Of a stretch of 64,000 nucleotides of DNA, positions 966 through 1,030 are shown piece by piece. The stretch is taken from the NCBI RefSeq assembly GCF_001677475.2, contig NZ_CP015229.1. One strand, given 5' to 3'. The stretch is from Escherichia coli. Lineage in GTDB: Bacteria; Pseudomonadota; Gammaproteobacteria; Enterobacterales; Enterobacteriaceae. The notes below the pieces were generated by a model that ran no database searches, was not told the DNA's origin, and saw only the letters and a list, made by a program, of their open reading frames with translations. The translations under genes were made by a program, and so were the position numbers. Within the stretch, counting starts at the first letter, position 1. The number at the start of each line of letters is the position of its first letter.

Positions 966-1000
966 CATATTTTGCTTAATCCGGGATTAAGCAAAATATG
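966..1000. repeat. Perfect 35-bp palindrome (17-bp arms, 1-bp centre) CATATTTTGCTTAATCC-G-GGATTAAGCAAAATATG
   Basis: Read directly; lies between the stop of the 325-aa gene and the ATG at 921; candidate operator or RNA hairpin. Confidence 0.6.
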
Positions 1001-1006
1001 CGGAAA

Positions 1007-1030
1007 CAGCATTCCCTTGCGGGAATGCTG
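1007..1030 (-). terminator. Hairpin (10-bp stem, 4-nt loop) just downstream of the 325-aa gene, followed by a weak U-rich tract
   Basis: cagcattccc-ttgc-gggaatgctg inverted repeat read in sequence. Confidence 0.3.

Follow-up and report, generated by a model that had tools for sequence, protein, structure and literature searches.

A conserved two-hairpin RNA element at the sinI-ratA junction of an Escherichia coli adhesin island and its possible processing by RNase III

A 64,000-nucleotide stretch of an Escherichia coli chromosome (NCBI RefSeq contig NZ_CP015229.1, assembly GCF_001677475.2; hereafter the window) carries a sinH-sinI-ratA adhesin island and is of the type found in extraintestinal pathogenic E. 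coli (ExPEC). Between the end of sinI and the start of the ratA-like giant adhesin gene lie a hairpin with a 10-bp stem and a 35-bp palindrome. From a comparison of this junction across genera, we conclude that hairpin and palindrome most likely belong together as a conserved, cis-acting RNA module, about 75 nt long, within the sinH-sinI-ratA messenger RNA, as judged from sequence and predicted folding. The core of the palindromic hairpin is a candidate recognition and cleavage site for RNase III, a reading to which we give about an even chance.

The 35-bp palindrome is perfect save for one unpaired central base. An inverted-repeat search gave two arms of 17 nt each (966–982 and 984–1000) that are 100% complementary with 1 nt between them, and no longer perfect short-loop inverted repeat was found within the 64-kb window. 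In the mRNA, hairpin 1 comes first (1007–1030, minus strand; CAGCAUUCCC-GCAA-GGGAAUGCUG). Its G+C-rich 10-bp stem carries a GNRA loop (10-nt arms 1007–1016 and 1021–1030, 100% complementary, 4-nt loop), and its stability is about −16 to −19 kcal/mol. It begins 11 nt past the TAA stop codon of sinI (1044–1042, minus strand); in relatives this distance is 9–16 nt. The linker UUUCCG (1001–1006, minus strand) follows, providing a short U tract after hairpin 1, and U1004, C1003 and G1001 form the base of hairpin 2. The full extent of hairpin 2, as defined by RNAalifold and pair counts, is 962–1004 (minus strand): beyond the 17-bp perfect stem of the palindrome (966–1000), it takes in G1001·U965, a C1002xU964 mismatch, C1003-G963 and U1004-A962, which makes a helix of about 19–20 bp. 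Neither the palindrome nor the hairpin 1 sequence recurs in the window, and shuffles of the window gave 0 matches. The 136-nt junction RNA has a predicted folding energy of −50.3 kcal/mol, compared with −29.6 ± 3.5 kcal/mol for shuffled sequences (z = −5.9), and the 83-nt two-hairpin element of the window folds at −42.5 kcal/mol. A chance origin is thus ruled out. The Shine–Dalgarno region GGUGGAG of the ratA-like gene (930–936, minus strand), assigned from sequence and fold, lies outside both hairpins and is unpaired in the predicted junction fold. Inverted-repeat search, shuffles and folding thus bear out the palindrome and the hairpin described in a first-pass annotation of the window. The location given there ahead of the next start codon is also right; the distance from the palindrome end to the ratA-like ATG is 44 nt rather than 46 bp, a trivial difference.

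For comparison we used an unbiased panel of 14 junctions, i.e., the window and 13 loci fetched by SinI protein homology, independently of the motif. Seven further junctions came from the pattern scan described below. Twelve of the 14 panel junctions and the seven from the scan share one common layout, which reads on the mRNA strand: stop codon, 9–16 nt, hairpin 1, UUUUCCG, hairpin 2, GUUGA, 25–45 nt, Shine–Dalgarno sequence and ATG. The layout was found in Salmonella enterica, Salmonella bongori, Escherichia albertii (two types), Escherichia sp. E4208, three Pseudocitrobacter, Citrobacter freundii, Superficieibacter and Leminorella. After hairpin 1, most relatives carry the tail UUUUCC, and two have ACCAG or AACUGG. 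In the layout-bearing loci SinI is only 38–68% identical to the protein of the window (40–68% in the panel), so that neutral DNA would be saturated with changes. Across these loci the sequence of hairpin 1 changes and its pairing is retained. In hairpin 2, an 8-bp core of (nearly) invariant alignment columns is kept, with UUUGCUUA as its 5′ arm (U995 to A988; 988–995, minus strand) and UAAGCAAA as its 3′ arm (U978 to A971; 971–978, minus strand), and the pairs flanking it vary. The core pairs are U-A U-A U-A G-C C-G U-A U-A A-U, i.e., WWW-SS-WWW. Exceptions are Leminorella, with a U at a G position, and E. albertii type 2, where the central G-C is replaced by A-U; this is the only core change found on both arms, and it is compensatory. 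Two SinI loci, those of Siccibacter and Citrobacter amalonaticus, have hairpin 1 and no hairpin 2. In Siccibacter colletis (5026–5112 of the fetched locus), the downstream gene encodes a 442-aa invasin-like protein, not a giant Rat protein. The spacer of C. amalonaticus (4975–5202 of the fetched locus) is 227 nt long and includes an extended A+T-rich stretch in which a separate promoter could lie.

Variation within E. coli was analyzed as well. About 8 E. coli genomes matched the palindrome at 80–90% identity. The one that was fetched derives from the enteropathogenic E. coli (EPEC) strain E2348/69 and has a second, deeply divergent sinH-sinI-rat locus away from the xseA-der site (NZ_LT903847.1, 2000861–2003900). 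This second locus has the two-hairpin element with a compensatory change from U-A to C-G, and its hairpin 1 is without a U tract. About 170 E. coli genomes have a single mismatch in the 43-nt palindrome region, which in both genomes fetched lies in the outermost pair (G966 to A). One of these strains has an otherwise identical 121-nt spacer, compared with five substitutions in the last 110 nt of sinI. Both structures are under selection.

To distinguish RNA structure from DNA symmetry, we analyzed covariation in a model-based alignment of 19 sequences, with a MAFFT-based alignment that was not fitted to the structure as a cross-check; both gave the same picture of pairing. RNAalifold placed both hairpins on the sense strand and showed that the conserved UUCCG and GUUGA flanks pair and lengthen hairpin 2. 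In total, 97.2% of 529 alignment cells form standard pairs, compared with 37–48% when the 3′ partners are slid by 1–3 columns. Compensatory, i.e., two-sided, changes occur in 13 of 28 pairs, and none of 500 shuffles reached the observed pairing or covariation score. Hairpin 1 is present in all 19 junctions with 100% of its cells paired and compensatory changes in seven of its ten pairs. In hairpin 2, the outer and inner stem pairs covary and the G·U at the stem base is kept in 18 of 19 sequences. G·U combinations, which pair in the sense RNA only, were found in 52 cells, compared with five cells with A·C, which would pair in the antisense RNA only; as such cells are phylogenetically non-independent, we also counted by column and found 11 pairs with G·U and 5 with A·C. 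Covariance-model scores were 66–94 bits for the sense strand of the training sequences and 52.5–75 bits for two sequences added later, and 20–38 bits for the antisense strand. The two halves of the core are 9 nt apart in most lineages and 8, 11 and 26 nt apart in three others, with the stem retained. Perfect DNA symmetry is limited to the E. coli lineage of the window; elsewhere the two arms are not fully complementary as DNA and still pair as RNA via G·U. The strand comparison is decisive: with 52 G·U cells against five A·C cells, it is the sense-strand RNA that is constrained and not the duplex DNA. Taken together, the alignments point to sense-strand RNA hairpins, of which the perfect DNA palindrome is a lineage-specific special case.

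The element is confined to a single gene junction. A blastn search found the 43-nt palindrome region in 946 of 5426 complete E. coli genomes, at exactly one site each and always on the chromosome (blastn shows two places per genome, i.e., a single palindromic site matching both strands). This search for other copies, proposed in the first-pass annotation as a check for a dispersed repeat family, hence gave no sign of one. The palindrome was absent from phage records, and just two plasmid records carry it, both of 4.9 Mb and taken to be chromosomes. An exact-pattern scan with TTTGCTTA-N9-TAAGCAAA over a genome collection of 100,044 species gave at least 120 places. Among the matches listed, 7 are in Enterobacteriaceae, and 7 of 7 lie between sinI and rat homologues with the full architecture; the motif being absent elsewhere in enterobacterial genomes among these matches, there is no regulon. 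The 113 other matches listed belong to unrelated phyla, many of them visibly within conserved coding stretches, and none of them has a sinI, sinH or rat homologue nearby. A covariance model of the element found one strong sense-strand copy per sinI-rat locus and no further copy, whether in the window or across some 250 kb of related loci. Rfam 15 gave nothing at the gathering threshold for positions 880–1080, permissive E-values included, and the best weak matches there were generic hairpins (RNA-OUT with 18.7 bits against a threshold of 41; miRNA precursors). In the literature we found no description of the two-hairpin element, and nothing relevant for STM2515-2517 or for RNase III together with sinI.

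The background of the pattern scan contained two recurrent groups. In six Stutzerimonas/Pseudomonas genomes, the matches are palindromes of the form TTTGCTTACA-N5-TGTAAGCAAA, most of them flanked by extra GCTTACA/CTTACA-like copies; they seem to represent a motif of that genus, operator-like or repetitive, with no relation to the element. About 18 Bacteroides matches, a large part of the background, have common flanks around TTTGCTTAT...ATAAGCAAA and seem to represent a single conserved, probably coding stretch whose fit to the pattern is due to chance.

A consensus scan of 922–1041 gave no promoter-like (sigma-70-like) site. Across lineages, only 28–45 nt separate hairpin 2 from the ratA ATG, and this distance includes a GGAG-type ribosome-binding site. 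Because of the lack of a promoter in this region and the short distance to the ATG, we conclude that ratA is transcribed from upstream through both hairpins. Two promoter candidates were rejected. The conserved TTGAA after hairpin 2 could be regarded as a −35 element; by eye, none of the lineages has a −10 element at a consistent distance from it, only 28–45 nt remain to the ATG, and TTGA pairs with the UUCCG linker. For a sigma-54 promoter from the TTGC of the core, there was no GG at −24 when both strands were checked by hand. Between hairpin 2 and the ratA ribosome-binding site lies the boxA-like sequence GUUUAACAA (939–947, minus strand), which resembles the 3′ part of the rrn boxA UGCUCUUUAACAA. 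It is found in this E. coli lineage only and not in other genera, and the likeness is probably coincidental.

Hairpin 1 had been proposed to be a terminator or attenuator, for which we find weak support. It has the stem of an intrinsic terminator, but its tail UUUCCGCA does not reach the five or more U in 8 nt that define one, and a terminator consensus scan of the minus strand at the junction made no call. The approximate d'Aubenton-Carafa score of hairpin 1 is −11 in the window, and in relatives with a UUUU tail it is marginally positive with +5 to +16. In EPEC locus 2 and Citrobacter Res13 the U tract after hairpin 1 is missing, and termination can therefore not be its general role. The sole universal property of hairpin 1 is that of a stable 3′ hairpin. 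In the window it is at best a weak terminator and more likely a barrier against 3′ exonucleases. A ribosome terminating at the sinI stop codon would need to open the base of its stem, given the 11-nt gap (1031–1041, minus strand). Reduced translation of the upstream gene has been reported for stable hairpins that lie within about 15 nt of its stop codon.

The invariant core of hairpin 2 can be read against the substrate preferences of RNase III. In the transcriptome-wide E. coli RNase III map, about 90% of targets are paired at the two positions between the staggered cuts, where a G-C or C-G is usual, positions B′A′AB prefer W-S-S-W, and pairing is most consistent at D/D′, where A-U/U-A is very strongly favoured (PMC6212723). 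A G-C or C-G pair at position 2 of the proximal box (corresponding to D) blocks binding, and at the pair adjacent to the scissile bond (B, proximal-box position 4) it blocks catalysis (PMC1540722). Substrates have a helix of at least about 11 bp and typically span about two helical turns (PMC1540722, PMC3867540). Intergenic regions inside transcripts are enriched in RNase III sites, and cleavage products that end 3′ in a stem-loop are shielded from 3′-5′ exonucleases.

The fixed block of hairpin 2 can be placed as D-C-B-A-A′-B′-C′-D′, and this is the sole register of the stem that agrees with the published rules. In this register, the centre is U-A G-C C-G U-A in 16 of 19 sequences, i.e., W-S-S-W, and the other three keep one of the two central G-C/C-G pairs. 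Positions D/D′ (U995-A971, A988-U978) and B/B′ (U993-A973, U990-A976) are invariant in 19 of 19 sequences and, being A-U or U-A, conform to the rules for binding and catalysis. Helix length agrees as well: hairpin 2 consists of 16–17 bp, a 1x1 mismatch and 2–3 bp. Below the predicted cut lie 9 bp, the mismatch and 2 bp, which is near the 11-bp minimum, and the total of about 20 bp is near two turns. The conserved G·U (18 of 19) is the 9th pair from the predicted cut, followed by the CxU mismatch and C-G; the canonical distal box, UA/UG with a U·G wobble, is at 10–11 bp. From this register we infer scissile bonds between C991 and U990 and between C974 and A973, which would leave 2-nt 3′ GC overhangs.

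Were RNase III to cleave after C991 and C974, the transcript would come apart between sinI and ratA. The upstream sinH-sinI RNA, left with a 16-nt tail, would be trimmed to hairpin 1 and stabilised, with hairpin 1 blocking 3′-to-5′ exonucleases and, in UUUU-tailed lineages, possibly acting also as a leaky intrinsic terminator. The ratA RNA would start with a 5′-monophosphate and an unstructured leader, and its stability and translation may then be set independently; the direction of the effect on ratA is one we infer. The first-pass annotation had suggested that the large downstream gene is controlled separately. An uncoupling from sinH-sinI is plausible with structures placed exactly at the sinI-ratA boundary, but it would act after transcription and not via an operator. 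A review citing Shea et al. 2022 describes sinH as co-transcribed with sinI, and does not mention ratA; this fits a break at the sinI-ratA junction and is weak evidence for it.

Several observations weigh against RNase III processing of the element as described. The wobble is one to two pairs off the register of the uR1.1 distal box, and the helix above the predicted cut has just 6–7 bp. In Leminorella and C. freundii, one of the two central core pairs is mismatched. The match to the RNase III motif was seen post hoc, and by our estimate about 1 in 6 stems of the same length would show WSSW with W at D/D′ by chance. RNase III preferences are degenerate, with no obvious demand for the exact identity of 8 bp. 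E. coli K-12, the strain in which the RNase III sites were mapped, does not have the island. To these points add the absence of hairpin 2 from the two SinI loci mentioned above, and the two lineages in which hairpin 1 has no U tract.

Other explanations need to be weighed against RNase III cleavage. The element could be a purely structural RNA module, in which hairpin 1 ends or stabilises the sinH-sinI message and hairpin 2 serves as a 5′ stabiliser of ratA after cleavage in the linker (e.g., by RNase E), as an exonuclease barrier or as a pause site. Both hairpins are strongly supported as sense-strand RNA, the 83-nt element is stable, the ratA Shine–Dalgarno sequence is left free, and tandem hairpins of this kind resemble the intercistronic stabiliser hairpins of fimbrial and mal operons. 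Under a purely structural role, however, the entire stem should be free to covary, as hairpin 1 does, and an 8-bp core that stays fixed between varying flanks is not expected; moreover, the unpaired linker of merely 2–4 nt is short for RNase E. We consider this explanation possible, albeit rather unlikely. Improbable in our view is a regulatory RNA with a specific reader other than RNase III, i.e., an undescribed cis-regulatory RNA family of the sinH-sinI-rat islands whose core, G·U and mismatch are recognized by RNA polymerase or an RNA-binding protein that gates RatA transcription or translation. This could be put-like antitermination ahead of the 6–8 kb ratA, or a dedicated RNA-binding protein or small RNA gating ratA. 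The invariant core and the conserved G·U and mismatch at the stem base would suit such a reader, as would two stem-loops 2–3 nt apart directly ahead of a very long gene; there is no Rfam family match, and no RfaH ops element was found near the locus to supply antitermination otherwise. Yet no partner gene is conserved beside the locus, the neighbours differing among genera, no third copy of either core half occurs at a conserved position to pair with the core, and the sequence of hairpin 1 is free, unlike that of a polymerase-binding RNA.

At the DNA level, the first-pass annotation had proposed an operator for a dimeric transcription factor at a ratA promoter with a terminator ahead of it. 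The E. coli lineage of the window does have a perfect dyad, and conservation extends to the half-sites TTTGCTTA and TAAGCAAA, which most lineages space 9 bp apart. The spacing would also fit a T-N11-A motif, and the LysR-type regulator LeuO activates iatB, the E. coli sinH orthologue, though at iatB's own promoter (PMC6714894). All the same, the sequence data largely refute the operator. The excess of G·U over A·C cells means that mismatches are tolerated only if the sense-strand RNA still pairs, pairs outside the half-sites covary, and half-site spacings of 8, 11 and 26 nt occur in three lineages with the stem retained. There is no promoter-like site in the 28–45 nt to the ATG, which include the Shine–Dalgarno sequence, and with all seven enterobacterial matches among those listed at sinI-rat junctions and one copy per E. 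coli genome there is no regulon. We therefore regard an operator as very unlikely. For a dispersed repeat, e.g., of the type of repetitive extragenic palindromic (REP) sequences or bacterial interspersed mosaic elements (BIME), or for a mobile-element remnant without local function, the sole support is that a palindrome lies between genes. This explanation is refuted: the element is single-copy in all 946 carrier E. coli genomes, the covariance model finds no other copy in the window or the related loci, phages do not carry it, the two plasmid matches are the 4.9-Mb records, and across genera it always occupies the same gene junction.

Among known systems, the element most resembles, in mechanism, the RNase III processing hairpins in leaders and between cistrons of E. 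coli and its phages, i.e., a helix of about 20 bp in a polycistronic transcript between a gene end and the next ribosome-binding site, with a W-S-S-W centre, A-U at the positions critical for binding, and an upstream stem-loop that could protect the processed 3′ end. The rpsO-pnp junction has a leaky terminator and then, within the pnp leader, a hairpin for RNase III; other examples are the T7 early R sites such as R1.1. The element differs from such substrates in that its core is stricter than the degenerate proximal boxes, its upper stem is short, its wobble is one step from the canonical distal box, its host locus is a horizontally acquired adhesin island, and its cleavage is a prediction. 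Hairpin 1 is like intrinsic terminators and attenuators in its G+C-rich stem of 10–12 bp, its stable tetraloop, the UUU or UUUU that follows it and its place directly after a stop codon, and its sequence drifts with the pairing kept. In contrast to terminators, its U tract is merely 3–4 nt long and followed by CCG, and two lineages have none. Like REP/BIME sequences, the element is a palindrome of about 35 bp between genes and gives a hairpin in the mRNA near a stop codon, but it is single-copy, unrelated in sequence and confined to one gene junction. The HK022 put antiterminator RNAs are two neighbouring stem-loops in the nascent transcript ahead of a long transcription unit. In contrast to put, the present element is not promoter-proximal, the sequence of its hairpin 1 is unconstrained, and it has no Rfam match.

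The surrounding locus is shared with other E. coli. The 301 bases around the element are 100% identical in several complete E. coli genomes, where the annotated order is xseA, ratA-like ← sinI ← sinH ← yfgJ ← der and the minus strand carries every gene of the island. In the window, sinI (1042–2019, minus strand) encodes a 325-aa SinI family autotransporter-associated protein according to the open reading frame list, its translation and the way RefSeq annotates an E. coli locus with 100% identity. Upstream of it, sinH (2074–4269, minus strand) was taken from the open reading frame list. SinI aligns to the C-terminal part of SinH with about 31–43% identity, which confirms that the 325-aa gene is a paralog of its neighbour, as had been noted before. 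The 5′ part of the ratA-like gene (1–921, minus strand; ATG at 921–919) was assigned from its translation, which begins with a signal peptide, and continues past the left window edge. Only its first 307 codons are in the window, all of them open. In the identical E. coli loci the gene is about 8 kb long and its product is annotated as 'adhesion domain-containing protein'; ratA-like orthologues carry BIg21/InvE_AD repeats and have GGAG/GGTGG-like motifs at the same distance from the start codon. In strain 118UI (NZ_CP032515.1), where the junction is 100% identical, the annotation gives the 8-kb ratA-like gene (7030–15072 of the fetched locus) an internal stop and lists it as a pseudogene. Rfam matches above the gathering threshold place the window in the der-hisS-ispG ... 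iscRS ... glmY region of the chromosome. These are sroE (9450–9541, minus strand), ryfA (23693–23978, plus strand), the iscRS stability element (31234–31343, minus strand) and GlmY (60707–60854, minus strand).

The sinH-sinI-ratA genes, known as the 'ila' locus and part of the Salmonella island CS54, serve colonisation and virulence in both ExPEC and Salmonella, and work is under way on SinH as a vaccine antigen. In the accessible papers we found no description of how the 6–8 kb ratA is expressed relative to sinH-sinI. The present analysis also holds a caution, namely that a perfect DNA palindrome that reads as an operator may turn out to be a special case of an RNA hairpin once relatives are compared. 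The two-hairpin element appears as a well-supported, undescribed RNA motif of a virulence-associated adhesin island and is a candidate for a new RNA family in Rfam. Its covariation-supported placement at the sinI-ratA boundary leads to a concrete hypothesis: ratA may be uncoupled from sinH-sinI after transcription, by RNase III cleavage together with a protective hairpin.

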